Positions 27,414 through 61,305 of a stretch of DNA of 64,000 bases are shown here, piece by piece. Where the stretch lies: assembly GCA_030704615.1 (NCBI GenBank), contig CM060732.1, positions 1,054,001-1,118,000 of the forward strand, in the 5' to 3' direction. The DNA comes from Takakia lepidozioides (taxonomy: Eukaryota > Plantae > Bryophyta). The notes under the pieces were generated by a model that worked only from the letters and a program-made list of their open reading frames with translations, was not told the origin of the DNA and ran no database searches. The position numbers and the translations under genes are program-made. Numbering within the stretch: the first letter of the stretch is position 1; each line of letters starts with the position of its first letter.

Positions 27414-30045
27414 TCACTGGCTGATGGAGGTGATTGACTTGCAAGCAAAATGAGTGAACTCCCTGAACTCCTTGGCTGTATAGGTGAGAGGTGTGCCAAT
27501 GACTTTGGAACAATGTAAGTATTTCCAAGCTTCATGTCCCTTATAGAAAATATCATCAGGGCCCAATTTTTTTTTTACCAAGTTGTTCCAAGCCAAATTA
27601 AACCATGAACGAAGCTGGGAATCCGTGTGCATCATGACTTTCGCATCATAGAGATACATATGGGGTGGAACTGAAGGTAAGACCCAATGATCCCCATTGG
27701 AATAACTCAAAAATCGTGATTGCATCTTCTGCTGCTCAATGTGATAACGTGTCATGAAACAAGCAGCATAGTACAATCCACAGCTCATGACAATACTAGA
27801 TACCTCCTTGGTCTTGGTGTAGATGTACCCATGAACAACCTGGAAGGCAATTAATTCCTTCAGCATGGTGCTTGCCTCAGACCAGTTTGCAAAATGATGA
27901 TCCTCAATGGGTCGATTGTTCGGAAGAACCTTAGTCCGAGTTGCCACTGGCAACCAAATGTGCATGAATCTGGTAATAATGTGCCAAAGATTGTGGAGGA
28001 CTGAATTCATTCCAAGCCAAATCCATCACAATGGGAATTTGGTTGAAGGGCATAATCATAGCCCGATTGTACTCCCGCGCAGCAGGAGTCCTAGGTGGGT
28101 TGAAAGCAGCATCCCCCCAAACCTCAGACTGTGGCGGCGCCATGGTATCAACAACGTCAGTCACTTGCACAGCCACCTGCTGTAGAGGTTATGATATTGC
28201 CGCCGCTGTCCCTCCTACTGTTGGCAACTCTTGCACTTACTGTGATGAAGACTGGAAAATTAGAGTCCTGGCATGCAAATAAGTAACCACCAGCTACTCC
28301 TCAGGAACAAAGACTCTTTTGTCAATATTGGAACTCAGGTCATCCACTTGAGTTTGCAGGCCTTCCACATCATCATGTAACTCCGCTATCCTACTATAGA
28401 CATTGTCTATAGTAGTTGTGGCAATGTTCTGCATCTGCAATCTAAGATCATTCATCTCCCCCTGAGTGAGCTTCCGTGGTGCCTTCCCTTCTACCGGGCC
28501 TTGTGTTAACCATACTTGCATAAGATGATTATCCACCAAGTCCTGTGTAGCACCCCTGAGAGTCTGCTCCTCCTTGAGTCTGTACACATCTAACTGTTGC
28601 TGTAAAGCCTCCATGCGCTTTGCATGAGGTTCAACCAGGGCCGCATAGGCAGCAACCAGATTATTGGCTTCCTTCCAAGCCTTGTTAGCCACAGAGAGTT
28701 CATTCTTGTGGCCCGTGAGTGATTGCTGCAACTGCAGGATAAACCGTTCTTTCTCAACCTCAACCTGACTGTACTGTTGGAAAGTATCCTCATTGCGACG
28801 GAGAGTAGCCTTCAAATCAGCAATAAATTTCCCCTGCTCTACTGTCTCAGTTTCGGCCATCATACATCTCTCTGCTTGTCTATTAACTTCTAACGCAGTT
28901 TGCTCCAGAGCAGTTGTTAGTGTGGCACATTGTATGGTCATTCTCTGATGAACTGTCTCCAACTCTGTATGAAGCACCTTCACTTCCTGCAATTGATATA
29001 GCTGCTGCTTATGTGCTTCATGCAATTTCCCCTGCTCCAGACCCGCTTCAATCATATTCCCCTTTGCTAGCTGCAGGGCAGCCTTGGTGTCCTTCAATTC
29101 TTTCTGCAACTTGAGGTTGGCCTCCACATCCACCTTGTTTGCACACTCAGTGGCAATTCTAGCCTCAAACTCTTGCTTGAGCTCCTGCTTCTTCTTCCCT
29201 CTCCAAAGGTCGTGCTTCCAGTAATAACAGCCCTCTGTGCGGCTGTTCCCCATCTTGCACAAGAGCTATGGAAACATCATCATCTCGCGGTTCCCTTGAA
29301 GCTAGTGGATCGGCCACTATAGGCGTGTCCCTCTTTTGTCTCTTGGACTGGTGCCGCCCTTCCAATCCACTTTCACCATGTGAAGAGCCCTGCTCCTCAA
29401 TTGCAGTGGTTGTTGCCTCAAACACTCCCATCTCCTTACGTTCTCGCGCATCAAGTATGCAAGAATCAAGAATAATTTGCGCAATCACTGGGCCAGACAC
29501 AATGATTGGAGATTAGCAGCAGTGCCTTGTAACCGCTTCATCTCTTCCACCAAACCATTGTACATTAAGTGCGCCCAAGCCACATCTTCCCCCCTCAAAG
29601 CTTTCAGTATCTCCTCCGTGAAGGATCTGCTAAGGTATTGTTGGTTCTGTTTCATGGCAAACAGAACATTCAGAACCTGACCAATTTCTTTTAACCCTGG
29701 GTATTTGGCCTTGGTGCAAGTGTATCCCTGAGTCTTAAAGAAACTCCCTTCTTGGAACAAATTGCCTATCTGCAATCTTGCCCTGTGCTCATCGACATTT
29801 ACACGGCCTGATGGCAATTCAAACAATTGTTGCAAGTATTGGGGAGTAATCTCTATATCTACTCCCCCCACTTGTGTAACTCCCGTCTGAGGTTCAAAGT
29901 TCTGAATGAATTGTATCATGAACGCCCTATGATGCAAGGACCATTCCTTGCGTAGCAATCCCTCCAATCGCAACTCCTTCCACAGCTGCACTGCCTGAGG
30001 TGTAGCAATTGTCTGCTTCTGCATAATCGTGGTGCTCTTCACCCC
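27414..30045 (-). CDS. Retrotransposon 3' accessory ORF(s): plant-transposon-protein-like N-terminus, long coiled coil and unknown C-terminal domain; start codon lies beyond MULE A at 43357
   Basis: Overlapping ORFs 29485-30045, 29165-29500, 28294-29262, 27931-28176 and 27414-28010. FIQNF...VGGVDIEITPQYLQQLFELP and DVAWAHLM resemble Athila/Tat accessory proteins. The middle is heptad-rich. Confidence 0.6.
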
Positions 30046-30083
30046 GGGGGCTGCTATTTCATGAGCGGCATGAGCATGAGCGG
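30046..30083 (+). repeat. Left TIR of MULE A with tandem CATGAG motifs
   Basis: GGGGGCTGCTATTTCATGAGCGGCATGAGCATGAGCGG is the inverted counterpart of 43281-43319. Confidence 0.88.
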
Positions 30084-30267
30084 AAAAAAAAAAAAGCATG
30101 AGCAGACCATTGTGAGTCCACGGAAATAGGGTTAGGAGGCATGGAAATAGGGTCATGTGAAGTTGAAATGTGGCACCAGTGGACTTGAAATGCAACATTT
30201 TATTGCAAATTTTGTGGCAAGCCACGTCTATACAAGTGTGTTCTAACTGTCATAGCCGGAATGGGCA

Positions 30268-33200
30268 CTACTCTCCTACACCCTCCGAGGAACTTGCCCC
30301 ACCTTCTTCCTCATCCCCCTCATCCCCCTCATCCTCCGAGCTCTGTGATGCATCAGTTCCACTATGCCTCTCAAAAATCCCGTCCTCTCCTTGGGGGACT
30401 GTCCACCTCACCTCCTGGGAATCTTCTGCGTCTTCTCCCCCACTTTCCTCAGCAGAATCCAAGACAAATCTACGAGCCCGACGGGCTCTAATAGCTGCTG
30501 CCTCCTCCCTCATCTTCATTTTCTTGAGGCTTGCCTCGTCTAAAATCTGCTGTACACGACTACGTTCGGAACACCTCCTAATGGACACCGAAGCAAGCCG
30601 GGCAGCATAAGTAGGAAGGATGTACTCCCTTTCTGGACTAGGCATGAAATCCCCCCTGGCAAAAAAAGGCACGTTCCTCCTGCCCATGAACTCCGGTGTA
30701 GACGTCCCTCCGGCAGTACTTGGCATCCTACAGTAAGAACAAATCCACTTGAAGAATGTCAATACCAGCACAACCAGAAAGGGTTTTCAATGAAATAAGA
30801 GAGCGGAGGGAGGTGCCTCACGAAATCTGGAGGCAACTTACAATGCCACCACTCACTCGTAAACCGGGGGCTCCTCGGCCTCGATCCCAACTTCCTCCCC
30901 CTGCTCCTTCTCGGATTTTTCCTCATCCTCCGAGGATGCCTCTTCCTCTTTCAGCAGACGTTCAGCCGCTGCAAGTTCCGAGTTGTGGAGGGCAGTATCT
31001 GGCTCGAAGGCGAACACATGCCTGTCGGACAACGTCCCTGCCCACATTGAAGCACCTGAGGAACAAAGCGGGCGGTTAATAGCTTGCGGCATGCAATTGT
31101 AGTCGGGCCAGGGGACAAACTGAGCACGTGAAGGCTTACCCGTGCCGCATGTGAGGTCCAGAATCCGCCCTTGGACATCCGAGCACGTCTCCATGAGGGT
31201 TTGGATGAAAGCAGGGCTCTGGGTCCGGCTGTACCGCCACGGTTTGCCTGTCTTTGTGTCCTTCGGCATACTGGAGTGGGGCACATAGTTGTAGAGGACA
31301 TCGTAGGTTACAGGGTCCACAGCGGCATCAACAAGACGACCGTCGTTGCAGAATTTGAACGTAGACCCTCTCTTCACAAAGCAATATGCCTCAAATACCA
31401 ATGTCTGCACATCCAACAAAGAAGGGATCAACTCCAGGGTCTACTTAACATACACCACAATATGAAGTGAATGCAAAAGATTGATAACTTACACTTTGGC
31501 CCTCTGTTCGCAACCCCTGCGTACTGATGCAGAACCATTTTCTGAGGAGGACCGGGGTGACACTTTTCGGTGTCCACCTTGCCACCGCATTCTCTGTGGT
31601 CTTCCCTCTCGTGGCAATGACAACCACACATCCACCGTCATCCAGAAGCATCCCCACCAGCCCAAACCCGGCTTTCCAGTAGTCCTCAGTAAACCTGTTC
31701 CAGGTGGGCACACCATCCAGGCCCTCCAGCAGCTCCCCATCTGGAATGTCGAGGAGAATCATGTCGCAAGCTCTCTCCACCTCAACCCCCCCCCCCGAGT
31801 GCTCTTGCAATTCGTGCTCACAGCCGTGAAGAATTCCATCATGGCTTCAAAACCAGGGGTGTCTTTAGGCTCTGTACCGCCAGCCCTCTTCTTGGCTTTC
31901 CCCTTCTGCTCCGCCAGAGACTTGTTGTGTGCCACCTTCTTCGCCCTGGCAGCGAGAGCGTCAAGGAAGCTCTCATTGACGCATTGGATGATGGTTGGAG
32001 GTTCTAGCTTTGGCCTGTGCGTAAACGTCACCGCCGAATACCGGCGTGTAGGCTCGCCCTCAAATGCCAACTTCTTGGCAGAGCCAGTCCCACTCCGAAC
32101 TGACTTGGGAACCCGGACGACCGGTGACTGGGTAGGAGCAACAGTAGTCGAAGGACCTTGAACGAAGTTGTCGTCCGAGTCACTCTCTTGGGTCCCCTCC
32201 TGCGCCTCCTCCGATGCCCCGATGGTTTTCTTCTTTTTGGGTGTTACTGCAGTCACCTGTTTCCTTGTCCTTTTCCTTTGACCTTTACTCTTCTCATGCA
32301 ATTTCTCCTGAATTCCTGCCTGAGCAAGCTCTGCCGCTTTCCTGGAGTTCGCAAGCGCTTTTGCCTCTTTTGCACCCAATGGAGGCAGCGGAGCCCGGTT
32401 TCGTCGGAATTCAGCATCCAACTTCAATTGAAACTCGGATGGGTCGAGCGAGCCGGGCGGAAGGTCCACATACCAAGGGCAATCACGCAAATGTTCCAGA
32501 TGCCACTCCTTCACAATATCGTCAGTGTACATGGAGTCAGCCCCAGGGTTCCTCCATGCCAGGAAGAATGGTGGCTCGAAAGACAGATGACCTTTCTCCA
32601 AAAGGGAGAACTTACAGTACCTGCATTCATGAAAAACACAATGAGGTCCGAAAATGGCTAAGTCCCTAAACGGCAATAGGGCCTACAACTGGAAAATGGC
32701 GCCGAATTTCCACTTCAGGGCCAGCCACCCTAGGGACTTAGCACGAAAATGGCTAAGTCCCTGGACGGCAATAGGGCCTAGAACTGGAAAACGGCGCCGA
32801 ATTTCCAGTTCCGGGCCAGCCACCCTAGGGACTTAGCCCGAAAATGGCTAAGTCCCTGGACGGCAATAGGGCCTAGAACTGGAAAACGGCGCCGAATTTC
32901 CAGTTCCGGGCCAGCCACCCTAGGGACTTAGACCGAAAATGGCTAAGTCCCTGGACGGCAATAGGGCCTAGAACTGGAAAATGATGCCGAATTTCCAGTT
33001 CCGGGCCAGCCAGTCTAGGGACTTAGCCATTTTCGGAGCCCTGACTGGAAATTCGGCGCCATTTTCCCTAACACCACTTGAGGCCTCTAACATCCTGAAA
33101 TGCCAGGACTTGAAAGAAAGGCAGCACGTATGTACCTGTACAGAAGGCGCATTGCTGCTTTGTCCGCGTTCGGCTGGTCGGTGAACTCGTGGCTCCGGCG

Positions 33201-36200
33201 AGCATCTGCTATCTCCCGAAAGAATAGGTTGGTTTTGTAGAGCAGAAAGTACCTCGTCACATAGTCACGTAGGCTCTCTGCTGCAGGAGATATCTCCATC
33301 TTGAACCGATGTGCTTGTGTGTCCAGCTGCTCTTGCGCATTCGTCGTCACCTGTGGAGATTGTCCATCAGATCGCTTTCCTCAAAAAATACAATGAATCC
33401 ACCCCCTACTAGAGTAGAAGCCCCAAACGAAGCGTGGGGAAGTACCTGAAACCACCATGTCATGCGGTTCATCCACATGTCGAATGTGGGGTCAGAGAGT
33501 TTGTCCGGTTTGGGGAAGCTCCACATGTCCCTGGCACTTTGGGAACCATTCCAGATTTGGAGCCACCGGGTCTCTCCAACCACCCAGCATATTCGTAAGC
33601 GCCAAACACCACAAAAAGGAGTTGTTGCCATCACAATTTTGTTAAGAATGTATCACCTTTTCTGTTGCATCCACACAGGATGTGGCTAGATGATGGAGCT
33701 TCTCCAATGTCATCGTGGGCTTCAGAGCGCGAGAGTAGTGCTTCCCCACCTCCACCAGAAAGTCGGCACCAAGGGCGGGATCAGCTATGGCCACGTACTT
33801 TACCATCCGCGACTTGTACTTTATGCGGGCCCTCACCTCCGCAGCTTTGACATACGATTCGAGTTCCGGGAGGGTTGGATTCTTCTCCTCTGACTCCATG
33901 TAGAACCTCCGCGCATGTGCCAAATCCTGCTGTATTTTCATCTGTCAAGAATGCGCACATAAGATTAGAGCTGCTCAACACAATTTCTTCTATTGGGGGA
34001 GGAGAGACAGATTAGCTCAACAAAACTGTCAGGAGCTTTACCCGAAATATGTAGTCCACCATGGCGTCGACGCTCAGCCTATACCAGGTTCTATCTGCCT
34101 TTGCCTCCGACTTGCGCAGGAGGTCGGCACTGAGGGAATTGGCAAACTCTTGCACCCCCTGCTTCCCGACATCCTTCACTCGGAAGAGCATATGGGACAA
34201 GTTGGTGGCAATGAAGGCATTCTCAGTCACCCTGCAGTGCCACATTTCCATCAAACAATACTGAAATGGGAATTTTCATCATATATGAGGATTCGCAATG
34301 AAATGACTTCCAAATTCAAAGTCCAAAAGCGAGAGGGGTTATAGCTTACGAGTTGATGTCGGCCATTGCAGCTTTGAGAAGACTGCGATCTTTGGGCCCC
34401 GCAACCTTCAGCACAATACAATCCACGGCGAAATGCCAATCGAGGTCGTTGGGGTGGGCTTGGGCAATGTGCTCCATCCATGCCAGGAGGCGATGATTGC
34501 CGTCCCACACGTAGAACATCTTACCGGACAAGTGCTGGAAAAGAGGATCACTAGCAATCGATCTCTCGAACTCCTCATTTCGCGTTTGCCAATGGGGACC
34601 CCATTTGTCCACCTCATCGGAAGTGTGGGCACGGGAAGCTCCGTGGTCGTTCTCAATGGAAACGTAAAAGGCGGCAGACCCCATTCGATATCCATCCCGG
34701 AAAGAGAATTTCAGCTTGTCGATATCGCCTGGGAGGGCAGGTCTCACCACCTGCAATGACACCAAGCGGCAAAGGGGAATTCGAAGCTTGGCTGGGTACA
34801 CCATCCCCCCCAGCACCCTGCCAATGTTGCTGTGGGTTGCCTCCAACATCTTGGCAGCGGCCAACTTCATATCCGCCTCAGACATGACGTCTGCTGCAGA
34901 GGGTTTTCCGGCAGCCCACCAGGACCGCCAAATCCAGCCTGTATGCTCCGGGTTTGGGGCCTGGGGATGTCCGGGAGGATGTCATCCTGGTCAGAAAGCT
35001 CCCTGTCGTCCTCCTCAACAAGGTCAGCCACCTGCAAAACCACCTCCAGCACTCTCCCCGTCTCTACTGCCCTCTCCCTGCTTCACCTGGAACTTGCACA
35101 ATCCGTGCTCTTTCAGGTGTTCTTTCCTCTCCTCCACTCTCCACCGTATGGGTAATTGCGGGGGCTGCTCTTGCCCGCGATGGTCTAACAGGTGTGTTAC
35201 TGCCTCTCTGTGGTGTCTTGGAGGGATCCACCGTCTCTGTGCGTCCCTCGCTTACATTGGCATCTGTCATTTGGGCACCCCTGGCCTCTTCAGCTGCCTT
35301 TTCTCTTTCCTCCTGGCTAGCATTCTGTCTCGTCTGCTCTTTTGCCCTCTCTTTTGCCCTCTCACGGGCTTTCTGTTTCTTACTAGGGCTAGCAGCAGGG
35401 GAGCCCTCCAGGACGACCACCTTTGATTGAGGCGAACTGACACCCTCGCGCGCACTGCTCACTCCCCCCTCCGCAGCCCATGACTGCTCTCTCGCCGAGG
35501 ATTGCATGTGCTTAGCTTTCTTCTTTTTCTTTGCGTGGGCGGGCCCTACTGCATGTGCATGAACAACCTCCATTGCTGGATCTGCTATCCTCATGTCCTC
35601 ACGCCCTTCACCTGCCATGCCGCCTGCACCAACCTCCCCAATGCCTACTCTGTCGTACTGTCGTTGCAAGTCCTCCCGTCCACCAACAAAAGGCTTAAGT
35701 TTGCCCTCTCGCCCCAAGTTGGGCGATTCAAACATGCGATGAGTTGGAGCTGTCGATGATACCACCAGCGTGCCGGGCTCGTCGTCACTCTGTCATTGAC
35801 AAAAATCGTGAAAACCAACATCGGTGCAAAAAGCAGCATCGCAACGAGCAGCGCAACCACCATAGCAACAATCGTGTAGCAAAAATGAAAACATAACAAG
35901 TTTAGGAAGTATGGAGAGCCATGCAACAACAATGAAAACAAATGCAACCATTGCCTGAGAATGACATGCACAAGCAGCCTTCTCCAGAGCTGCCGGATTT
36001 GCACACGCATTGCAAACAATCTAAGGTTCACTCAACTATCTGAAGTTCACTCATACAGCGAAGCCAGGATGAAGATGCAAAAACAAAGCGAGGTAACAAA
36101 GCGAAAGCAAAAAATAAATCGAACAAACCGAAAGCAGAAGTGGCTTGCCTGAGAGTACTCGGCTTCAGTTGGCGCAGGTTGTGAGCAAGACACTGGAATC

Positions 36201-36376
36201 TCCTGCTGGAGCTTCAGTTTGGCCATGCGAGAGATTGGCCGTCGTCCGTAGTACAGAGCTTTCAACTTCCGCCGCGGTCTGGATGTGAGGTCTCTCTCAG
36301 GAGAGCCACGCCCTTCAGGCGGCATAAGTCCCAGCCAAAAGATCTCCTTTTTTGGGGTACATGCCTCGAATAGCAT
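30268..36376 (-). CDS. Multi-exon gene: low-complexity N-terminus + ParB/Srx-like domain + unknown helical/Trp-rich domains + beta-class amino-(N4C/N6A) DNA methyltransferase-like domain + acidic tail (copy A)
   Basis: VWDGNHR at 34510-34490, DMILLDIPDG at about 31765-31736, and [27 protein letters not shown]|ASMWAGTLSDRHVFAFEPD. Frame-preserving GT-AG introns at e.g. 33135-32621, 31492-31405, 31139-31056 and 30856-30728. Exon-by-exon homology with copy B. The 5' end is uncertain; a frameshift falls at the poly-C near 31790. Confidence 0.8.
32650..33062. repeat. Intronic 95-bp tandem repeat (about 4 copies) carrying GGCGCCGAATTTCC and GGCTAAGTCCC/GGGACTTAGC motifs
   Basis: Cores at 32698, 32793, 32888 and 32983, plus an inverted copy at 33055, all inside the 33135-32621 intron. 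Confidence 0.92.
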
Positions 36377-36575
36377 GTTAAGCCAAGATTAGCATGAGAT
36401 TTAGGGTACGTGTCCAGGAAGCCATGCGTCGCCAGCCCCAATGATAACCGACGGCGGTCGACATTTATTGCCCAACTGCGCAATTAAATGTCGGATGAAG
36501 CCCTCCATGTCGGATGAAAATCGACGTAAACAGTCCCGGAATTTCCAACGTAGAGGTAATTCGGAGCGCTGCACG

Positions 36576-38630
36576 ATGGAATTCCGGCGCCGGATTTCCA
36601 TCCTGCAGGTAATTCGGAGCGCAGCAGGATGAAAATTCAGCGCCGAATTTCCATCCGCGGAGGAAGGGCGGCGCTGGAAATTTCCCTCACGCAGGTAATT
36701 CAGAAGCGCGCGGATGGAAATCCGGCGCCGGATTTCCATCCCCGCAGGTAGGGCGTCGCGCCAAATATCCCTCACGCAGGTAATTCCGAAGCGCGCGGAT
36801 GGAAATCCGGCGCCGAATTTCCATCCGCGCAGCTCGGGGGGTGCGCCAAATTTCCCTCACGCAGGTAATTCGGAAGCGTGCGGATGGAAATCCGGCGCCG
36901 AATTTCCATCAGCGGAGGTCGGGCGGCGCGCCAAATTTCCTCACGCAGGTAATTCGGAAGCGCTCGGATGGAAATCCGGCGCCGAATTTCCATCTGCGCA
37001 GGTCGGGCGGCGCACCAAATTTCCCTCACGCAGGTAATTCGGAAGCGCTCGGATGGAAATCCGGCGCCGAATTTCAATCCGCGCAGGTCGGGCGGCGCGC
37101 CAAATTTCCCTCACGCAGGTAATTCGGAAGCGCGCGGATGGAAATCCGGCGCCGAATTTCCATCCGGCATGTAATTCGAATACCGGGTGAATGGAAATTC
37201 GGCGCCGAATTTCCATCCGGCAGGTAAGTGGAATCCCGGATGGATGGAAATTCGGCGCCGAATTACCATCCTGCAGGTAATTCGAATCCCGGATAAATGG
37301 AAATTCGGCGCCGAATTTCCATCCAGCAGGTAAGTGGAATCCCGGATGGATGGAAATTCGGCGCCGAATTTCCATCCAGCAGGTAATTCGAATCCCGGAT
37401 AAATGGAAATTCGGCGCCGAATTTCCATCCAGTAGGTAAGTCGGATCGCTGGCGTATAGATATTCGGCGCCGAATTTCCATTCGCCATGTATTTCATCGC
37501 TTAGAATTTCCTTCCTGCAGGTAATTCCCAGATGAGAATTACCTTCCTACCGGCATCGATAGGAATTACCTGCAGGAAGGTAATTCTCATCTGGGAATTA
37601 CCTACAGGAAGGAAATTCTGAGCGATGAAATACATGACGAATGGAAATTCGGCGCCGAATATCCATACGCCAGCGATCGACTTACCTGCTGGATGGAAAT
37701 TCGGCGCCGAATTTCCATCCAGCAGGGATTCGAATTACCTGCAGGATGGAAATTCGGCGCCGAATTTCGTTCCATTCGGGATTCCACTTACCTGCTGGAT
37801 GGAAATTCGGCGCCGAATTTCCATTCATCCGGGATTCCACTTACCTGCAGGATGGAAATTCGGCGCCGAATTTGGATCCATCCGGGATTCCACTTACCTG
37901 CCGGATGGAAATTCGGCGCCGAATTTCCATCCATCCGGGATTCCACTTACCTGCCGGATGGAAATTCGGCGCCGAATTTCCATCCGGGGGATGGTCTCTG
38001 TCGGAGAGGTGCCGCCTCTCCGCCGCTCTGTTGGATATTCGGTGCCGAATTTCCGTCCGGGGGTTGAAATATGACGGCCAGGTGCCGACCTCTCCCCCCT
38101 CCCCGACTGCATTGGAACGGCCCCGGATTGAAATTCGGCGCCGTTTTCCCATCTGGGGAGGTTTTTATGTCGGCCAGTTTTCGGTCTGACCCCCGACAAG
38201 ACTTCCTTTGGGGGGGCCCGGATGGAAATTCGGCGCCGAATCTCCATCCAGGGGATGCTCTCTGTCGAACACGTGCCGACCTCTACGCCCGAGGCGACTT
38301 CATCCGGGCGTCCCCTGTTCGATATTCGGTGCCGAATTTCCGTCCGGGGGTTGAAATGTGACGGCCAAGTGCCGGCCACCCCCCCCCTCCCCGACTGCAT
38401 CCGAACCGCCCCGGATGGAAATTCGGCGCCGTTTTTCCATCTGGGGATGTTTTTATGCCGTCCAGTTTTCGGCCCGACCCCCCGACACAACTCCCTTTGG
38501 GGGGCCCATATGGAAATTTGGCGCCGAATCTCCATCCAGGGGATGTTCTCTGTCGCACACGCGCCGGCCTCTGCGCCCGAGGCGACTTCATCCGGGCTTC
38601 CTCTGTTGGATATTGGGTGCCGAATTTCCA
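36576..38630. repeat. Palindrome array A (GATGGAAATTCGGCGCCGAATTTCCATC), about 28 copies, between the divergent genes
   Basis: Sub-arrays with 85-, 53- and 95/96-bp periods, a perfect 42-bp palindrome at 37685-37726 and a large inverted repeat centred near 37561. Confidence 0.95.
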
Positions 38631-38934
38631 TTCGGGGGTAGTAATGTGACGGCACGGTGCCGGCTTCTCCCCTTCAGCCGTCATCATCCGGACGGCCCCC
38701 CACTTTCTGACTGCATACCGTTGGCAGTTATTGCGCAAAGACCAGGGGCCGCATTCCGGAGACAAGGTTCATTAACACTCTGACTGTGGATTTTTGAGAT
38801 AGTTGGCTCCCTGGATTTGGATCAGGCTTCGTCGCTCGGACAAATCGGCATCGCATTCATTCCCATCGCTGCACCCCCTTCTACCAGGGAGCTTCCCCGC
38901 ACGCCATCCTGGCAGTCTTGTGTGCACATCTCCC

Positions 38935-41900
38935 ATGGCGGAAAACCCGAGCGCTACAGTGTACTGCCCTCCTCACGAGCATAGAGCTTCATTTCCGTGC
39001 AGAGGGGACACCTGCCGGGTGATGGAGAAATATCTGTGCGTTCGATACCACCTGAAACCGGGGTCGGTTTTTTTGGAGGAGGAAAGGAAGAACTCTAACG
39101 GCCTTGTTGTCGAGAGTATTGTTGTGCTCCACGATGATTTCGGCGATGGCAGGGAATGGCGAGTTCCACCATCGGACAGCGTCATATACAGGGCTGTTGG
39201 GGACTTCATTTGCCCGCCAAATGCACCTTCTATCCTGGCGCCTTCCACGAAACAATCCGCGAATCAGAGAGTGGCTACCTTAAAGAGAGAAGTCCGCAAC
39301 GAAGTAAATCCAGAGCCGAACCCATCCATGAAGACGAGTGAGAACCGGGTTGTTCACAACCTGTCCGACTCAGACGAGGTCATGGAAGTTCCGAGGTCGT
39401 CCTGGAGATCAGGCAAGTCCTCAATGGACGTCAGTGGAGGAGGGAGTCATATTCCCAGCACGAGCACCGCAGTTCGATCTATTCTTGAAATTCTGCGAGG
39501 GCTTCACCTGGAAGGACACCGGTCGGAGCTGGCCGGCTGGACTACGCAAGTTCGCAATTAAATCGGTTACATGCCTTCCCGCCGACGTCGACGGTAATAT
39601 CTTCTTTGAGTTCCCTCCTCGGGCGGACTACTCGAGGGCGTCCGGAATGTTGACAGATATGGATAGAAAACATGACGGTCATCCTTGGTGCGTTACCAAA
39701 ACCACCAGCATGAAGATGCTCGATGGTGTGCGGGCGCATTGCGGTGTTTCTCCTCAACTTGCTTCCACTTTAAATCCAGAGGTCACAGGAACGAGACCGA
39801 TTGGACAGGCACAGCTCACCAACCATTTCGAGCTCAGGAGAAGGTTCCGAACTCCACATTTAAGTGTGCGCATTGCAAAGAACCACCACACTGCATGTCT
39901 GTTTGTAATGCCAAGCAGTTCTATGTGTTGCACCGTTTCCCTGACCTCACCCGAGCTTGCATACACGTTGGTTCCCATTGTCACAAATTGGCGAGGGGGA
40001 ACTCGTGGAAGGCTGCCCACGAAGCAGAGCAGCTCGTTCAGGAGGAGGTTAAGTTGAGACCGGGTGCCAAACCCAAACAGATACAGCTCCAAGCCGCCCA
40101 TAAGATGGCATTGGCCAGAATTATGTCGGAAGACGGCTCCGATAGAGTTCCTCTCGACGAGAAGGAAATGGAGGCATTGCTGGAGTCGGTGTCCCATGTA
40201 TGTTCACCGAATGTCCGAAACCACATTGTCTCATGCAAACAGAAAATTGGGCGTGGCTCGGATATGCACTCCATTCTGGAGGTGAAGCGACGATGTGGAT
40301 ATGACTACATTCATGGAAGTAGGTTTCCAGGACAAGGGACTGAGGCAGATCGTTGTTTCGTATTCAAAATGTCCACGTGTGGACCTGGCAGCGGCGTCGA
40401 ACTGGTCGACAGGATGACGAGTGGGAACTTGTCAAACAGTTGGGGTCATGTTCGACCATATCAAGCGAATTACAAATCACCAGTGGGTGACAATGGGTGC
40501 ACATGTCTACGACACCCACTGCAGGATGCTAATGACAATTGTTATTTGTGAGATGAAAGGAGAGGACACACAATCGGAGATGCTTATTTGGCAGGGAATA
40601 ACGAACAGATGGCCAAGGCGGGATTGCCCCCTCCCAATTTCCGTGGTTTCATGGCGGACAACGCACAAGCAAATTGGGCTGCCATCCGAAGGGTGTACGG
40701 GCAAGACCCCAATGTTCCCATGGAAGGCAAGGAGAGATCTTGTGGGTTCCATTTTCTGCAGAGCCTTTCGCAGTACACAACCAGGCTCGTGGCGCCAGAT
40801 TTCAGAGAGGAGCACCGTTCTATGTGCCTTGCGTGGAAGCGCGCTCCCACCTTGGATGATGCAGAGACACAGTTTGCATGCATACGGGCTTGGTGGACAT
40901 CGTCAGGTGCTGTAAGGAAATCAGACGAGGGAGCAATGGTCAGTTGGCTAGCATGGTGGCATTATCGTTTCCTCCAGTTCGGCGACTATATGCGGGAGGT
41001 GAGTTGCACGAATTCGCGTCCCGTTGAATATTATTCTTGGCCATATTTGTAACTTGCTTGTAACCTGAACATGTGCTTGTGCAGGAAATGTGTCTCGACT
41101 CCGACACCGACATGCCCACGACAAACATGGCCGAATCAGTGCACTCTTCCTGGCGTGCCTCCTCTGCGGCGCATCTGGTGGACATCCTCACTGCCACAAT
41201 GGAGGACATTGTGAGGTCATTATGCAGCAATGCAGGTACAACGAGTTCTTGAAAGGGAAACAGTGGGGCTTGGGCCGGACAGGCAGGAAATGCTGATGCG
41301 GACTGCCTCCAGATCGAAGAATCCTCGGAAGTGGGCGGCGGCCTTGCGAGAGGGCCTTCGGGATACACCATTGCTGCGAAGAGGCCAACATTTGGAAGGA
41401 GATGTTCATACCCGTCCAGTGAGACGAAGACTTGACGAGGCACCTAGCGGAGAAGAGGATTCATGGCGAGCTGACAAGAATATTCGCACGCTCCCTCGTG
41501 GTCCCGTGATGTTGCCCGAGGAGGTCTCGTCGAGCACCGCAAGTCCTGCACGTTCAAGATCGCCATCTCCTTTGAGCACAGGGCGCGCGCCCCGGCAACA
41601 TAACGAGCCATCTGTAGTAAAGTAGTACAACATTCCCATTGTGGAGACAAGAGTGTCGGAGTCACAGTGGAGAATTGCGAGGACATTGCCGGCATTTCGA
41701 GGGAAGTGCTGCGCCATCCGGGTGGATACGAGAGCACGATGTGGTGAGATGATTCGGAGGAACCCACACGGTGCTGTACCTGCACCTTGTTTCAACGGCA
41801 GATTTTTGACTCCCACATTTGCTCATGCCACAACGCAGACATTTTGGTTCTGTAGGCACGACATAATGACCTGTGTATTTGGCAGCCCAAGTACGGGATT

Positions 41901-42497
41901 CAGGGAATGCCGGAGCCTCGGGCGTCTGGCCTGTTGCACCGGGTTGCAACCTCTCTCAGAATGAGGCGGATGCTCTATCTGCAGCAGGATTTCGAATGGT
42001 GCAACGCACAGACATCCCGGCCCACTCATTTCCGGTTCCTCAGACCCAGCCATTGCAGACTGCTCGGTCCAGTAGAGACGGATTGGACAATTCTGCACAT
42101 CCCACAATGCGATTCGGAAGAGTGAAGAGACGACACCCTCCCAACAAGTTGAATGAGACTCGGATTGCCAATGCTCTTGGGATGGCTTGCACTATTCAGA
42201 GCTCCGTGGACGTACCCCCACCCGCCTTGGGCGTGTGTATTGGATGGCAACGGCCGGCTCGGCTGTACGCGACGATGTATACACAATTACGATTGGAGTG
42301 GAGCCGACTTGCAATGTACAGACTTCTCGTTGATGGAAGCAAAGAAGGGTTCGAAGTATTATCCGTGCAAGCATCTGTATTACATCTACCTGAAGAGGTT
42401 GAGGATGAACGTGACTATTGATGACTTTATTCATACACCGGCGTTGAGCGTGAACGAGCTGCACAAACTCCTCCTTAGGGATTCCAGAAATCATTGA
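38935..42497 (+). CDS. Mutator-family (MULE) DDE transposase with GCM/WRKY-like zinc domain and SWIM finger (several frameshifts, one intron)
   Basis: Cys/His domain ending RACIHVGSHCH. VMFDH (D1), FMADNAQANWAAIRRVY...SCGFHFLQ (D2 + CxxH) and TTNMAESVH (E) after in-frame intron 40999-41084. C-terminal C-x-C-TDF...PCKH SWIM motif. Confidence 0.88.
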
Positions 42498-42653
42498 TGG
42501 GGCAAACGGAATCCTCCATATGGATATTTTCAAATGCATTTTGCTGTATCAGACTTTTTTTTGCAGTGTAATGAAATGCACCCCAAAACTCCTGGAATGA
42601 GGCAATATTCCATTCAAACTGAGATCCAACAGAAGCAGTTGTGGGGCCATTTC

Positions 42654-43080
42654 TGGAAAAATGGCGCCGAATTTCTCTTTTTGGGGCCGAAAACTGGCTA
42701 AGTCCCAACATGCATTGGTACCTGTGTCTGGGAAAATGGCGCCGAATTCTCTTTTTGGGGCCGAAAACTGGCTAAGTCCCAACATGCACTGGTACCGTGT
42801 CTGGAAAAATGGCGCCAAATTCTCTTTTTGGGCCGAAAACTGGCTAAGTCCCAACATGCACTGGTACAGTGTCTGGAAAAATGGCGCCGAATTTCCCATT
42901 TTGCGCCGAAAACTGGCTAAGTCCGAACATGCACTGGAAAAATGGCGCCGAATTACCTGTCATGAGGGGACCTATAGCCGCGGAATTCGGCATCATTTTT
43001 CGCCAGAGAGACCTATTACCGCGAAATACGTCGCCGTTTTTTCAGGTTACGGACCCTATTACCGCGAAATTCGGCGCCAT
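42654..43080. repeat. Right subterminal repeats of MULE A (72-75-bp units with GGCGCCGAATT and GGCTAAGTCCC)
   Basis: Cores at 42663, 42738, 42811, 42883 and 42944, using the same two motifs as the intronic repeat. Confidence 0.88.
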
Positions 43081-43280
43081 ATTTGCACATGTCGCTGGGA
43101 ATTAGCATGAGCGGAAGACGAAATATCATGAGCACAACTGTCAAAACTGCAATTTTCCCTTCAAGGGGGCCGAAGAATAATATTTGTTTTTCCTGACACA
43201 TTGCATTAAATTATTGTTTTTTATTGTTTTTTATTTTCGAAATTTGTACTTCTGCTCATGAAAACCGATTGTGTTACTAC

Positions 43281-43319
43281 TCTGCTCATGCCGCTCATGC
43301 TCATGAAATAGCAAACCTC
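43281..43319 (-). repeat. Right TIR of MULE A
   Basis: TCTGCTCATGCCGCTCATGCTCATGAAATAGCAAACCTC followed by TSD TTCACCCC. Confidence 0.88.
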
Positions 43320-43353
43320 TTCACCCCGACATCCTCCATTCCCCGAATTCTCT

Positions 43354-44163: not shown

Positions 44164-44385
44164 AGGCTTGTGTCAGACTCTGACGAGCTGTGGATAGGCT
44201 GTGTGATGCTCTGATGGGCTGTGATAGACTGTGTGACACTGTGGTGGGCTGTTGATAAACTATGTCACCCTGTGGTGGGCTGTGATAGACTGTGTCACCC
44301 TGTGGTGGGCTGTCATAGACTGTGTCACACTGTGGTCGGCTGTGATAGACTGTGTCACCCTGTGGTAGGCTGTGATAGCTATGCG
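44140..44385. repeat. About 30-bp tandem repeat (GTGGGCTGTGATAGACTGTGTCACCCTGTG) in the Ty3 3' region
   Basis: At least five near-identical units, related to the GGCTGTG 10-mer tracts in the LTRs (25548-25750, 27085-27200). Confidence 0.85.
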
Positions 44386-46536: not shown

Positions 46537-47189
46537 GAGGTTTATTATTTCATGAGCGCATGAGCCCATGAGCCTATGAGCCTATGAGCTCATGAGCGGG
46601 CATCCGCGGAATTGGAATTTTCCTGCCTTTATTGACGGTGTTATGTCCTCTTACCTCGGTAATAGGGTTTGTTTCTCCTGGTCCAGGATGCGGAATGAGG
46701 TATTTCGGCGCCGTTATTCCCAAGAGTAGTGTGCTAAAATGGTGTTTTGAAGACATCCACCGGGGTATTTTGGCACCGAAATTACCTCTTAAAATGTGAT
46801 ATAGTGTGGTATTTAATGGCGCAGAACGGGCTATTTCGGCGCCGAAATACCCAAGTGGAATGTGCTGAAGTGCCTTGTGCCAAAGGCTTCCATCGCGATA
46901 TTTTGGTGCAGTAATTCATCCGTGGAATTTTTGAGGCCCATATAACGAATGCGCGCACTGGGCTATTTCGGCGCCAAATTTCCCAATAGGAATGTTAGAA
47001 ACGGCAGGGTTTTCATGGCTTCAAGTTCCCGGATCGATGGTGTGCATAAATTACTTGTAGGGTTCTTCACTAAGTTTGCGTCTCTTCTGCTTTTATTATA
47101 CATTTTGGTGGGCGGAAGAAATGTAGGGAATCGGACAAGCAGTCTGAACACAATGATTTTTCAAATCGTCAATATTTTCATTAAGTGTT

Positions 47190-53100: not shown

Positions 53101-56100
53101 CTTTTCCGGTCGGAAGGAGTCACCTTCCCGCCGGGTCTTCTTGTGGTTCAGCTCCGTACGGCCTTGTCTTTCACCCCTAGGGACATCCGAGAAACATTCA
53201 GCCCTCTCAATTGCCTCGTTCAAAGTCTTGGGTGGCTTCTCCTCCAACTTCCGCCTGGCCCATGGGGCCAGTCCCGCCACAAAGTTGAAGACCATTTCTG
53301 GTTCTGCCATGTCCGCGACTTCGAGCAACAGCACATTGAAAGCCTGGACATACCCCGAATGTCATCTGTTTGCTTCAAATTCCTCATCTTGTCCCGGGCA
53401 AGCCAGGACGCGTTGAGGGGCACAAACTGTCTCTTCATCAATTCCTTGAACCCACTCCAGTTCAAGGTTTCCGGGCTTGGACCTCGGTCGTGAAGGCGTT
53501 TCTGCCACCATTGTTGAGCATAGCCCCTCAAATAGGTGGGAGCCACTTCCACCCGATCCTCGTCACTCAACTTGGCCGCCCGGAAGTACTGCTCTAGCTC
53601 CAGAGCCAGGTGTTGAGTGCCTTCCGATTTCGGACGCCCTCGAAGGTGCCGGGTTCCTTAGGCTTCACCTTAAACTTTGCCTTAGTGGAAGTGGCATTAG
53701 CCGCCTTCAACACGTCTTTCAACGTCCCGCCAAACTGCGCCAACAACCCTTCCCAAAAGGCTGCCGGCATGGGAGGCATCTCTTGGTTTGTCGGAGCTCT
53801 CAAGGATTCCTCGGGCTCCGACTCCTCGGATTCCTCCCGCTCTTGAGCGGCCTCGTTTTCGGAAACATGCATCGCTTCCTCAAACGGCCGCCTCGGTGAC
53901 ACGTCGCCCCCATCGGGCTCACCGGGATCATCATCTTTTGGGCCGTTCCGCTTTCGCTTCGGCTTGCCCGACCCCATGATGAGGCCAATCCCAAGGACGA
54001 TCGCGTACTGAACTCTAAGCTCTGATACCAAGTGTCGCGCACCTCACTTCGGTAAGCTCCCCTTCAAGTCATAGTTACTCGCTTTGATGCGCGCGACTCC
54101 CAACCTGGCCGCCGGGCCAACTTGGAGCTTCGGCTGCTCACCGGGACATAACGGTCCCCTTTCGCTTCCCAAAACCCTCCACCTATTTGGGACTAGGAAT
54201 TCCCTTTGGTAGATGGCAGTCCGGAACAGCTCCCCACTCTTTGGTCGCTTTCCGGCTCGCTCGCTTACTCACTAGTTTTTGGTCACCAACGGGCTTGCAC
54301 CGTTCTCGGGGTTACTACTCCCTATATATACTTCTGTAGCTGTCCGCGGGGGTTTCACAACCAGCCATGCCATTTTATGGCGAACCACCACGAAACCCTC
54401 GACTCCCGGTGGTGAGTCGCGGTGAGTCTTGGCCCACTCACCACGGCCCCTATGGACCGTGATGAGTCCCAAGACTCCCCACGACTCCCACCACGAGGTC
54501 TCCGCCCCCATGGTGAGTCCTATGCCACCCCCACTAAGTCCCTAAGCTACCACCACCCCTTGTGGAGCCACCCCCACCGCAACCCGGTGTGCGGGGCTCC
54601 ACCTAGTGAGCGCCTCCGCCTCCTGAGTGCCTTGGGCACTCAAGGGTGCTTCAGCCCCCCATACCTATCGCTGCCGCTGCCCCCACCACAGGGGCAGCCC
54701 CTCATGTGTCCCGACCCCCTGCCCTCAAGGCAAAGGGCCGCGACAGTGCAACTCACTCGAAGACAGGCATTGGGGGAAGCGGCTTCGGGCGCCCCTGCAT
54801 CGAACGAATTTCCTGGACTTCCTCCTCTTCATCTTCCTCCTCCCCTTCCACGTCCTCTTCTGCTTTTTGGGATCCTCAGTCGGAGGCAGACGCTGAAGGC
54901 CCGCCAAATTGTAATCGTACAAGGCCGTATCCCCCTCAAATGAGAACACAAATCGGTTCGACATCCTTCCCCCACATACAGGCACCTGCGAATTCATACG
55001 ACAACCACAGCCAAACTCAAGAATGAGTCGCTTCCTCGCACAAGCAAACATACACAAACGGAAATGGTGTCAATTCGGTGCCGCATTCAATTAACGTTCT
55101 CACCTGTATTTGCAGTGACGTCGAGGACCCTGCCTTCAACATCCGTACACGTTTCCATGAGCGTCTGGATGAATGCAGGACTCCTGGTCCTGCCATACCT
55201 CCATGGCTTGCCCGACAAATCACAAAGAATGTCCTTCTCTCCCACATGGTTGAACAGGACGTTATACTCCAGTGGATCAACTGTGGAATCAACAAGTCTT
55301 CCTGCTTCACGTAATTTGAATTTCGAATGTTCCTTCACGAAGCAAAATGCCTGAAAGATAAGAGTCTGCAGAGAAGGAAATGAAAACGTCAGAGGTGGCC
55401 TACACGTACAGGGGCAATTTTGGCGCAGAAATTGACATAGCAGAGGAGAACCACAGCATACCTTCTGGCCATCGTTGAGAAGACCCTGCGTGTTGATGCA
55501 AGTCCAGATCTTTTTCAGGATGGGTGCTGCACTTCTCCCCGTCCATACTTTGATATCATTCTCAGTGACTTCTCCATCGGCTGCTAGCACAACAACACAG
55601 CCACGTCGTCCAACATGTTGGCTGCGAACCCGAATGTGTGGCTCCAGTATCTTTCGTCGTACTTGTTCCACCAGGGAACTGAGCCCAGCCCCAGTATCTC
55701 CTGCCCATCCGGGATATCCACAAGGATCATGTCGATGGAGGCTTTCACCGCCCTGCCCCCGACTGTGCTCTTTTTGCCGTGGCTCATCGCCACAAAATAC
55801 TCCATCATCTTTGTGTAGCCAGGAGTGTCCTCCATATCATTGCCAGTGGCCTTCCTCTTCCCCTTCCCCTGGTGGGCCTCGATCGCCTTCCTCAATCTCG
55901 TTATCTCCAGCCTTCTGGTCAGAGCAGTTAGGAAATTTTCATTAACACACTCCACAATTGTGGGTGTTTTGAGGACTTCCCTGCCCGCAATGTGCACCGC
56001 ACGGTAGGGTCTGCCAGGTGCATCCTCGTATAGTGATCTCTTCGCAGCCGACCCCCCGGAGCGCTGGCCCTTGTGAATTTTCGGACGAGGTGTGGCCCCC

Positions 56101-59292: not shown

Positions 59293-59539
59293 AAGGAGAG
59301 GAAACGCAGGAGAATGTCACTGCAGAAGGGCAAGGAGCGAGAGAGCGAAGCGGTGGAACATGCAACCACTATGCACGAGCAGATGCGTAAGCAGCCACGT
59401 CTCCCGAAGCGTTGCCACCGTCCACCACTTTCTGCCGTATGGGTGATGAAGAGATTGTGACCCCTGACACGTTCGCACGGATGAAGTCGACTGGAACACG
59501 ACGCGTGCCAGTTCCAACCACCAGTATAAGACGGTTTAT

Positions 59540-61305
59540 CCGAATTGCGGCACCGAAATACCTTCCGTTCACCGGATGCTGTTCCCGGAGCAGCCGGCAT
59601 TGAATGAAATATCCGCACATCATGAAACCCAACCGCCATGAAAATCCCCTGCCTATGACATTCAACAGTCAGGTCGGTACGTTTCATCAGCGGACGGATG
59701 AATTTCGGCGCCGAAATTCATCCTATTCAAGTGCTTTCATACACAAACTTACGAATTTCGGCGCCGCAATTCATCGCTTCCCAAGTCCTCATCCGTCATG
59801 AGCAAACCTGTCAGTGGGATATCGGAGCCGGAATTAATTCCGGGACAGGAAACGGCTGCACTTGGGCACATTTCATCCATATTTCGGCGCCGAAATTCAT
59901 CTAGACGAAGACTAAATCGCACCATGCTACGCTTTGCCGCCATCATTGCCCCTGACGGATGCTGTCCATGCCTGTTGGACTTGCCATTTCTGGACATTTA
60001 ACTATAATTTCGGCGCCGAAATTATACTTTATGTGCGGCAACGTCCCGTGCGAAAAAGACCACTTATTGGATACTGTCGGTTTCAAATGAAAAAAACGGC
60101 TAAAATGCAATTAATTTTGACAGAAGGGGTTCAATATGCCGATTTCTCCATTAAATGCAGAATATTCCTGTTATCTTCGTCGGAACGGGGTATTTCCAAC
60201 GATTTACGGAAAATTATATCATCCAGAAGCAAAAGTAAGTGTCGGGTTTGGACGAATTTCGGCGCCGAAATTCATCCGTCGCATAGAAAATGTAATATTA
60301 GAGTTACTCATTGCGGACAGTAAGGATGAATTTCGGCACCGAAATTCATCCATTTCAAAGAAAAATAAATATTGGAGAGAGGGCATTGGATGAATTTCGG
60401 CGCCGAAATCCGGCTCTGAAACCCTGAAAAGAATTTGGAGGGATGAAGTCGGTTGAATTTAGGGGCCGAAATATTTTCGGATGAATTTCGGCGCCGAAAT
60501 TCAAAAGAAAAAAAATAAAATCGGGAGGACTTCGGATGAATTTCGGCGCCGAAATTCATTGCTCGCGAAAAAAAAAAAATCGGGAGGACTTGATGAATTT
60601 CGGCGCCGAAATTCATTGCTCGCGACGGAGGAAAAAAAGGAAAATTAGAAGGGAGTACTTGGATGACATTCGGCGCCGAAGTTCATCTGTCGCAAAGAAA
60701 AAAAAACAAAAAGGACTTCAGATGAATTTCGCCACCGAAATAGGAAAATTAGAAGGGAGTACTTGGATGACATTCGGCGCCGAAGTTCATCTGTCGCAAA
60801 GAAAAAAAAAACAAAAAGGACTTCAGATGAATTTCGCCACCGAAATCCATCCGCAGGGCAGCAGAATTAGGGTCGGAAAAGGAGATGAAGAATGAATTTC
60901 GGCGCCGAAATACATCCATTCTGCCGATTCAGGATTACTGTCATTCGGATGTCGGCACCGATATCCGGACACGTGGTGAATCACGACTGTAATCAGGAAC
61001 ACATTCATCCGTATTTTGGCATCCAAATTCAACCCTTATGTACAGAAACAATTTAATGAAGAAGATGTTCATCCGAATTTCGGCACCGAAATCCATCCGT
61101 TTTTCGGCACCGAAATCCATCCGTTGGGTGCTTGGTCAGTTTCATGAGGTGAACAAATTACGATTTCTGTTGCTGGAATTCATCCCCTGGCTTTCAAAGC
61201 TGTTACATGACAGAGATGTTCATCCAGATTTCGGTGCCGAAATTCATGGGAAGGCCTGATTTATTGTAGCCCAAGTGGTTGTACATTACAATTCAGGCAC
61301 CAAAT
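59540..61305. repeat. Palindrome array B (GGATGAATTTCGGCGCCGAAATTCATCC) between the divergent genes of copy B
   Basis: About 20 or more exact and degenerate copies, with a perfect 28-mer at 59696-59723 and poly-A spacers at 60350-60850. Confidence 0.92.

Follow-up and report, generated by a model that had tools for sequence, protein, structure and literature searches.

We analysed a 64,000-nt stretch of the genome of the moss Takakia lepidozioides (GenBank assembly GCA_030704615.1, contig CM060732.1, forward-strand positions 1,054,001 to 1,118,000; this whole stretch, numbered from its first letter, is hereafter the window), in which two diverged genes, A and B, carry the motifs of a DNA amino-methyltransferase. 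Sequence comparison places these motifs in the three final exons of a transposon passenger gene that is spliced and combines a ParB-like domain with a beta-class methyltransferase fold. By the same comparison, copy A appears to be the passenger of a 13.3-kb Mutator-like element, and copy B to belong to a diverged second element. The methyltransferase-fold domain is a real, selected feature of this transposon accessory gene family, and both local copies are broken.

A six-frame search of the 64 kb returned exactly two occurrences of the motif IV tetrapeptide DIPD, both on the minus strand, with the D at 31750 in copy A (within the string ERACDMILLDIPDG) and at 55718 in copy B. In each copy, motif IV comes first and the S-adenosylmethionine (SAM)-binding motif last, exactly as described by a first-pass annotation made from the letters of this DNA alone. 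A further motif string lies between DIPD and motif I (31218 in A, 55182 in B, minus strand), and motif I itself reads ILDLTCGTG at 31161 in A and VLDVTANTG at 55125 in B. The motif II string RHVFAFEPD, which that annotation had given to both copies, occurs at 31023 in copy A only; the equivalent in B is RFVFSFEGD, in a shifted frame. Across 1815 contigs of sequencing run X1, the motif IV codons of A show no substitution at 2% or above. In both copies, DIPD departs from the active-enzyme motif [DNS]-P-P-[YFW] with its base-stacking aromatic residue.

Two GT-AG introns (88 and 84 nt) separate the methyltransferase exons of gene A. In run X8, guessed to consist of RNA, a 770-nt contig matches these exons in three contiguous pieces that skip both introns, which indicates that a related copy is spliced like gene A; the contig differs from copy A at 16 letters. 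Through the exon of gene A that encodes YVWDGNHR, we reached nine longer homologues among 315 candidates. Every exon of A is matched in order by the Ceratodon purpureus protein P0005 (1147 aa; tblastn), as is most of gene B, and this protein carries PF01555 above the curated cut-off. Its architecture consists of an acidic N-terminus, a ParB-like domain, a helical middle region, a disordered linker and the methyltransferase fold, and the Adiantum protein P0082 shows the same domain order. A profile search over 1.84 billion representatives gave 277 matches, the best 150 of which were returned. Of 30 matches looked up, 14 were species-named, from Ceratodon, Adiantum, Taxus, Cryptomeria, Calypogeia and Riccia, and no alga-named protein was among these 30 homologues.

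Single window exons yielded no useful Pfam or PDB match, and taken alone they did not match PF01555. With the window protein interrupted by introns, the fold was predicted on the relatives P0025 and P0005. The spliced A domain matches the family profile (130 rows, copy A's own exons among them) at E = 4e-57, and the profile in turn matches the PDB entries of CcrM (E = 3.8e-16, profile positions 10-221), M1.HpyAVI (4e-15) and then MboIIA, with rotifer N4CMT at 0.003 and RsrI at 0.02. The methyltransferase part of P0025, whose motif IV reads DLPE, was modelled by AlphaFold with a predicted local distance difference test score (pLDDT) of 83, and this model superposes on CcrM over 233 residues (Z 19.9, root-mean-square deviation (rmsd) 3.5) and on M.BceJIV, N4CMT, MboIIA, PvuII and RsrI at Z 16-19 (N4CMT 18.2). 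It displays the features of the beta class, namely a circularly permuted Rossmann fold with motif IV ahead of motifs X, I and II. The C-terminal domain is thus predicted to adopt a beta-class amino-methyltransferase fold. That fold had been proposed by the first-pass annotation, with M.RsrI and M.PvuII as the structures to compare, and both the profile match to CcrM and the model of this relative bear it out. A metagenome locus, the sole one to come out of 68 candidate stretches, was discarded as a chance hit: the match spans 15 residues in AT-rich, apparently non-coding DNA.

Among 149 family rows, with three non-family matches and the two window copies excluded, 56 cover motif IV. Their fourth residue is E in 14, D in 12, S in eight, K in six, T in five, H in four, N in three, F in two, and Y and M in one each, and their first residue D in 37, E in six, N in six, Y in three, F in two and Q in one, with one gap. 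An aromatic residue at position 4 is therefore present in three rows and absent from 53. The three that keep it are Ceratodon-type members, P0005 (DTPF), P0010 (DQPY) and P0013 (DQPF); the non-aromatic state, together with conserved flanking motifs, is found across mosses, liverworts, ferns and conifers. The first-pass annotation had taken DIPD for a conserved motif and its missing aromatic for a conserved loss. The alignment upholds the loss, in 53 of 56 homologues, and does away with the motif: exact DIPD occurs in 2/56, the D that replaces the aromatic is not conserved, and the fourth position is variable. Nor does the family match SPPY or TSPPY of N4C methyltransferases, since no row of the 56 has S at the first position. 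What sets DIPD apart is its final letter alone: D-I-P is unremarkable, being shared with the DIPY of a phage protein whose annotation is adenine methyltransferase.

The remainder of the putative active site is better preserved. The second P of motif IV is kept in 54/56 rows, the W of the VPxWN motif in 57/58, the motif I D in 101/107, the last G of motif I in 77/108, the motif II E in 47/58 and the motif X K in 83/105, for which copy A has Q. Motif I reads DLxASTG in the family versus the canonical DPFxGSG, its F and first G being mostly absent; copy A keeps GTG and copy B does not. In CcrM, Tyr34 is the DPPY residue that stacks on the flipped adenine (PMC6787082), and in rotifer N4CMT, Tyr110 has been modelled as stacking on cytosine, with the second Pro (Pro109), a downstream Trp (Trp142) and the motif II acid (Asp301) touching the cofactor (PMC10406627). 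From the alignment to CcrM, we infer the family W to be the counterpart of N4CMT Trp142. The base side of the pocket thus seems to be lost and the cofactor side mostly kept, with a motif I that lacks F and the first G in most members. A fourth residue this variable speaks for a relaxed pocket rather than a new catalytic one.

Between A and B, synonymous sites are saturated (proportion of synonymous differences, pS, 0.77), and the non-synonymous proportion (pN) over 207 methyltransferase codons is 0.30, slightly inflated by the comparison of middle exon 5 and methyltransferase exon 3 across B frameshifts. Amino-acid identity is 54% in the methyltransferase part and 51% in the rest of the protein. 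The saturated pS, the pN of 0.30 and an identity equal to that of the rest of the protein point to purifying selection on the fold, in line with the earlier suggestion of selection rather than decay. In a phylogenetic tree rooted against five prokaryotic outgroups, the plant members group together in a single clade (99%). The aromatic-bearing moss group is sister to the rest with 94% support when a single outgroup is used; with five outgroups and the motif IV columns removed, support drops to 47%, and a single early loss of the aromatic is not claimed from this tree.

At the other end of the protein, both window copies contain DGNHR, the G-x-x-R nucleotide motif of ParB-N. The N-terminal part of P0005 was modelled with a pLDDT of 71. 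In Foldseek, the top ten rows for this model were all ParB or Noc (best E = 0.025, a modest value), and the top seven matches in VIA comprised sulfiredoxin, KorB, PadC, SerK, SbnI and Atu1540, which we take to share one fold, at likewise modest scores (Z 5.7-7.3, rmsd 2.0-4.2, 78-97 residues aligned). ParB_N and DUF3723 clusters score 0.92-0.94 in Atlas, with which PHROGs agree. The N-terminal domain is thus predicted to be a ParB/sulfiredoxin-like fold, each of these scores being modest. The ParB-like exon at 34352-34885 also resembles fungal DUF3723 clusters (Atlas score 0.94; the family is on 31% of members); DUF3723 is a Starship accessory gene. ParB partition proteins recognize a palindromic parS site through a helix-turn-helix and form a CTP-dependent clamp. 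Structure comparison of the P0005 model revealed no clear helix-turn-helix in the helical middle region (pLDDT 50-85), which matched a ParB DNA-binding domain only weakly (Z 3.5).

Coordinates of the two genes and of the elements around them are compiled below.

Table 1 Features of the window assigned by sequence comparison
Feature	Position	Strand	Remarks
Element A, 13.3-kb Mutator-like DNA transposon	30047..43318 (ends +/-1 base)	.	Inverted ends and flanking direct repeat
Left 12-bp direct repeat holding the target-site duplication	30035..30046	+	Exact; these two are the only occurrences in the window
Right 12-bp direct repeat	43317..43328	+	
Left terminal inverted repeat of A	30046..30085	+	Short, imperfect; CATGAGC subterminal repeats
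Right terminal inverted repeat of A	43283..43319	-	
Small third open reading frame of A	30268..30771	-	No Pfam match; B counterpart matched at 47340-47762 (38% identity, tblastn E=1e-19) in an ORF at 47190-47753
Gene A, final exon, with the end of motif I, the motif II strand (RHVFAFEPD) and an acidic tail	30853..31055	-	
Gene A, exon holding motifs X and I (ILDLTCGT)	31140..31404	-	
Gene A, long exon, with the end of the middle domain, the disordered linker, the frameshifting G-run, motif IV, VPxWN and LDDG	31493..32620	-	
Motif IV of copy A, D-I-P-D	31739..31750	-	Six-frame search and exon alignment
95-bp tandem repeat with palindrome, intron of gene A	32648..33028	.	
Gene A, four middle exons, helical domain	33136..34230	-	In-order tblastn with P0005; in-frame exons 52-56% identical to B
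Gene A, ParB/sulfiredoxin-like domain (YVWDGNHR)	34350..34885	-	Acidic part upstream to ~35765
Palindrome arrays of A, between the divergent genes	36539..38664	.	53-, 85- and 96-bp units
Broken intron-containing transposase gene of A	38937..42470	+	MULE-type D..D..CxxH..E and SWIM-like, by eye
Repeats of 73 bp with the palindrome, close to the right end of A	42652..43110	.	
Terminal repeat of element B	46537..46600	+	Starts like the right end of A; within a Gypsy RNase H region (RT_RNaseH 45541-46581)
Gene B, second ParB-like/methyltransferase-fold gene	54752..59036	-	~50-65% identical to A; several frameshifts
Motif IV of copy B, D-I-P-D	55707..55718	-	Exon alignment; 3/4 codons synonymously different from A
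Palindrome arrays of B	59500..61250	.	
N-terminal part of the B transposase gene	61498..62260	+	39-58% identity to that of A; cut by a Gypsy insertion; protease domain downstream

The terminal inverted repeats of element A are imperfect, span ~35-40 bp, are shared with the end of element B, and include a 17-bp perfect inverted match (30060-30076 / 43283-43299). The string TATTTCATGAGC is found in the window only at 30055 (+), 43310 (-) and 46546 (+), the last position being the end of element B. The 12-bp direct repeat overlaps the element ends, leaving a target-site duplication of 8-10 bp depending on where the ends are placed; for Mutator-like elements (MULEs), 8-11 bp have been reported (PMC6446971). 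An open reading frame (ORF) at 29485-30225, read by eye, continues out through the left end of A, and element A accordingly seems to have inserted into an older retroelement ORF. The interrupted retroelement (27414-30225 and 43354-44172) carries extra ORFs without a Pfam match, for a coiled-coil protein and a 198-aa protein with HW and CG motifs. Gene A (minus strand) and the transposase gene (plus strand) stand back to back inside the element. The transposase motifs MFDH (40448), MADN (40651), CGFH (40741), NMAES (41124) and PCKH (42366) follow the expected MULE order. This D-D-CxxH-E arrangement with a SWIM finger, read by eye, is putatively of MULE type; in database searches, the transposase of A gave no Pfam or PDB match, no homologue among the longer proteins searched, and Atlas scores below 0.9. 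A Sola element was rejected as the carrier, as Sola requires a 4-bp duplication (PMC10741241) and that of A measures at least 8 bp. Cargo of a long terminal repeat (LTR) retrotransposon was ruled out by element A having its own ends and interrupting a retroelement ORF.

Element B preserves the order seen in A, i.e. end, small ORF, accessory gene, arrays and transposase start, with two Gypsy insertions. A chromodomain-bearing Gypsy retrotransposon (48200-54700), nested in B, separates the accessory gene from the small ORF, and part of the retrotransposon LTR recurs, inverted, at 25875-26085. The small third ORF lies downstream of the accessory gene on the same strand and is kept in both elements.

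The non-coding DNA of both elements is densely populated by a palindrome whose core, CGGCGCCG, occurs 47 times versus 0.3 expected. Of 70 matches to the 12-mer with at most two mismatches, 63 fall in non-coding DNA of A and B and seven in a third array, leaving none in 7.3 kb of A and B exons, none in the 4.3-kb transposase span and none in the 39.5 kb outside. The flanks differ between the elements (GAAATT-CGGCGCCG-AATTTC in A, GAATTT-CGGCGCCG-AAATTC in B). The densest arrays occupy the shared promoter region and not the element ends, although palindromes are also found at 46680-46900, near the end of element B. At 37135-37986, centrally in this promoter region, 53-bp palindrome units make up a 309-bp inverted repeat (93% complementary), which could form a large hairpin or cruciform or yield small RNAs. 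The third array (20400-22400; GAAATG-CGGCGCCG-CATTTC in 64- and 90-110-bp units) sits beside a Gypsy gag region with neither an accessory gene nor a transposase in view, and is probably what remains of a third element. Missing from the first-pass account, which had described the motifs and the fold, were the transposon, the ParB-like domain and these arrays.

Both window copies are frameshifted. In copy A, an 11-base G-run (31786-31796) immediately upstream of motif IV puts the sequence out of frame, and the product of this copy would stop before the methyltransferase domain. The run is one, two or three bases shorter in some contigs, which makes the site either variable or prone to error. No homopolymer is present at this position in copy B, and a sequencing error in A is possible. 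The run sits between the ParB/middle part and the methyltransferase fold, where slippage, if real, would toggle between a ParB-only and a full-length protein. Copy A also lacks one base at 34900 that runs X4 and X6 have; copy B is broken right after LDD and bears several frameshifts overall. Compared with other copies, 16 of 26 listed exonic differences of copy A are non-synonymous. Over 30700-35100, C>G and G>C account for 26 of the 114 places at which copy A and other copies differ in run X2, an unusually high share and about as many as C>T and G>A together. Runs X9 and X10 contributed no contig over the motif IV stretch, which is no evidence either way. As many as 16,798 contigs of run X2 match the copy A region, with a 66% share in a 2-Mb run, which suggests a multi-copy repeat, read depth being no measure of copy number.

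Elsewhere in the window, fragments of pentatricopeptide repeat (PPR) genes, tandem and frameshifted in ~400-bp units, occupy 7460-12530 and point to a land-plant host, and at 13830-17682 lies a non-LTR retroelement whose reverse transcriptase frame is almost open (RVT_1, E=9e-9).

ParB-methyltransferase passengers have already been published for algal transposons. Sola1-1_Ec32 of Ectocarpus carries an accessory gene with ParB-like and DNA methyltransferase domains (PMC12477816). As here, a single long protein (1104 aa there, 1147 aa in the Ceratodon homologue) joins a ParB-like to an N4C/N6A methyltransferase domain, and, within a large DNA transposon, its gene and the transposase occupy opposite strands. 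The moss elements differ in their land-plant host, their Mutator-like carrier and their 8-10-bp duplication, compared with 4 bp for Sola (PMC10741241). In the plant family, motif IV lacks the aromatic. The likeness to Sola1-1_Ec32 is one of domain description. The Ectocarpus paper cites Iyer et al. 2011 for similar algal proteins (PMC12477816), which may bear on novelty. On giant Plavaka transposons of the red alga Bostrychia, PAG2 and PAG3 likewise comprise a PF01555 methylase and a ParB-like domain, inverted-repeat tandem arrays accompany the ParB-like gene, and self-binding has been proposed (10.1101/2025.02.11.637652). Unlike the moss genes, PAG2 and PAG3 are described as separate genes with fusions to SET and 2-oxoglutarate (2OG) oxygenase domains, on an EnSpm/Plavaka carrier. 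For the algal passengers, a self-directed role is proposed, with no test reported in these two accounts (PMC12477816, 10.1101/2025.02.11.637652). Our literature search found neither a land-plant Mutator family of this kind nor the family-wide loss of the aromatic in print, a weak negative, as the same searches missed the Ectocarpus paper.

A parallel in anatomy is offered by VANC of Arabidopsis VANDAL elements, which binds short motifs in tandem repeats of the introns and intergenic DNA of its own MULE and removes silencing (PMC5735166). Both systems combine a MULE, an accessory gene and non-coding tandem-repeat motifs that differ between related elements (PMC5735166, PMC10398659). VANC in turn has DUF1985/DUF287, with no ParB or methyltransferase fold reported in those papers, and its motif is no GC-rich palindrome; DUF1985 and DUF287 gave no Pfam match on the window ORFs or the homologues. 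VANC activity is proven, whereas the plant ParB-methyltransferase protein is known here from sequence and models.

With CcrM, M.BceJIV, M.MboIIA, M1.HpyAVI, M.RsrI and M.PvuII (PF01555), the plant family shares the predicted fold (Z 16-20), the motif order and the cofactor-side P, W, D and E. It differs from these beta-class enzymes in that [DS]PPY has become D-x-P-(non-aromatic), in its eroded motif I, its ParB-like fusion and its introns. The first-pass annotation had tied the Takakia genes to the N4-methylcytosine (4mC) enzymes of rotifers and Marchantia. They are of the same class, horizontally acquired beta-class folds in eukaryotes, and the N4CMT structure is matched at Z 18.2; the tie goes no further, with a profile E-value of only 0.003 for N4CMT and with SPPY in N4CMT and TSPPY in Marchantia DN4MT1 (PMC8885841, 10.1101/2021.02.12.428880), compared with the D that mostly (37/56) starts motif IV in the plant family. 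N4CMT and DN4MT1 are moreover described as host genes with intact motifs and proven 4mC activity (PMC8885841, PMC10406627, 10.1101/2021.02.12.428880). Conserved yet catalytically disrupted amino-methyltransferase folds have a precedent, also on mobile elements, in METTL14 and the DIRS1 retrotransposon methyltransferase domain (PMC4738411). Those belong to the MT-A70 and PCIF1-derived clades, with neither a ParB fusion nor palindrome arrays reported there, and the ParB-methyltransferase plant family was not seen among the eukaryotic methyltransferase clades consulted in that paper (Iyer et al. 2016, PMC4738411). The retrotransposon precedent is contested, since a 2026 preprint claims, in a section title, a preserved catalytic pocket for retrotransposon DAM domains (10.64898/2026.05.21.726589).

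Since the anatomy of the element parallels that of VANDAL, we propose a VANC-like, self-binding pseudo-enzyme, i.e. a transposon accessory protein whose methyltransferase fold is likely catalytically dead, and we favour this reading tentatively, with somewhat less than even confidence. The ParB-like and helical parts would recognize the palindromes, with parS-like loading; the methyltransferase fold would still dimerize and may hold SAM or S-adenosylhomocysteine; and, lacking the stacking residue, it would grip or open DNA with no methyl transfer. Palindromes rich in CG and CCG, once occupied, would exclude host 5-methylcytosine (5mC) or recruit demethylation, so that the shared promoter region would stay unsilenced and both genes be transcribed. 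The broken window copies would rely on intact copies elsewhere. A dead pocket is preferred over new chemistry mainly because the fourth residue varies. Several points weigh against this proposal. Inactivity is likely from the motifs, yet a missing aromatic is by itself no proof of it: beta-class enzymes are dimers and could supply an aromatic otherwise, and with F or Y present in three Ceratodon-type members, part of the family may be active. SAM binding is uncertain given the eroded motif I, the ParB scores are modest (E = 0.025; Z 5.7-7.3) with no clear helix-turn-helix, and the palindromes could be transposase sites. The fold was modelled on P0025 and P0005 and not on the window protein; among the 56 homologues, gene-prediction fragments are numerous and some copies may be decayed; and the transposon context is that of the two window copies.

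A bolder form of the same idea, which we consider possible though rather doubtful, is that Mutator-like transposons of non-flowering land plants evolved a second, independent anti-silencing system from bacterial parts. A ParB clamp on parS-like palindromes would be combined with a methyltransferase fold acting as a non-catalytic, DNA-opening shield against host 5mC, the aromatic having been lost once, early, and the loss kept in mosses, liverworts, ferns and conifers.

Alternatively, the protein may be an active DNA amino-methyltransferase, most likely writing N6-methyladenine (6mA), that marks its own element through a rebuilt base pocket. The whole fold is kept, including the motif IV D and P, the motif X K (83/105) and the motif II E; main-chain contacts to the base do not depend on the aromatic side chain; three members keep F or Y; the phage adenine methyltransferase, so annotated, reads DIPY; and self-modification has been proposed in Ectocarpus (PMC12477816). 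We nevertheless consider an active writer somewhat unlikely, as the aromatic is absent from 53/56 homologues with no conserved replacement, the first residue is Y or F in 5/56, copy A has Q for the motif X lysine, and changing SPPY to APPA, albeit two residues together, kills N4CMT activity (PMC8885841). Less probable is a structural partner of transposition, comparable to mudrB or TnpA, that would bridge or compact the 13-kb element via its palindromes and have no role in methylation. ParB proteins clamp and bridge DNA, and palindromes also occur near the ends (42652-43110; 46680-46900) and in introns. The gene has been retained beside the transposase in two diverged elements, and mudrB is reported to be necessary for integration (PMC6446971). 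The densest arrays, however, lie in the shared promoter region and not at the ends, which have CATGAGC repeats of their own.

A pocket retooled for some other acceptor, for instance RNA or, in a chromatin protein, a lysine or arginine residue, seems still less likely. The fourth position is acidic in 26/56 rows, the cofactor side is conserved, and the methylase of one red-algal transposon carries a SET fusion (10.1101/2025.02.11.637652); against this, 30/56 rows are non-acidic, and no protein methyltransferase outranks the DNA enzymes in fold or profile matches. Finally, the gene could be a decaying passenger in which DIPD in both copies reflects shared descent only, as the frameshifts in both and the 16 non-synonymous changes among the 26 listed exonic differences might suggest. 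For the window copies decay does hold. For the family it is largely refuted and, as an explanation, very improbable: synonymous sites are saturated between A and B, methyltransferase identity (54%) compares with 51% elsewhere in the protein, a related copy is spliced, and the non-aromatic state persists with conserved flanking motifs across mosses, liverworts, ferns and conifers.

To our knowledge, transposons proven to bind and change their own epigenetic state are few and come from flowering plants (VANC, TnpA and the AtMu1 transposase). The plant family described here makes self-binding by transposons testable in mosses and liverworts, and it offers matched pairs in which the aromatic is kept (DQPY and DTPF in Ceratodon) or lost, each with a predictable target palindrome. 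If the fold is dead but selected, it would constitute a new class of methyltransferase-fold pseudo-enzyme; if active, it would overturn the rule by which amino-methyltransferases depend on a motif IV aromatic, and land plants would have in it a source of 6mA or 4mC. Either outcome could yield a sequence-specific epigenome tool.

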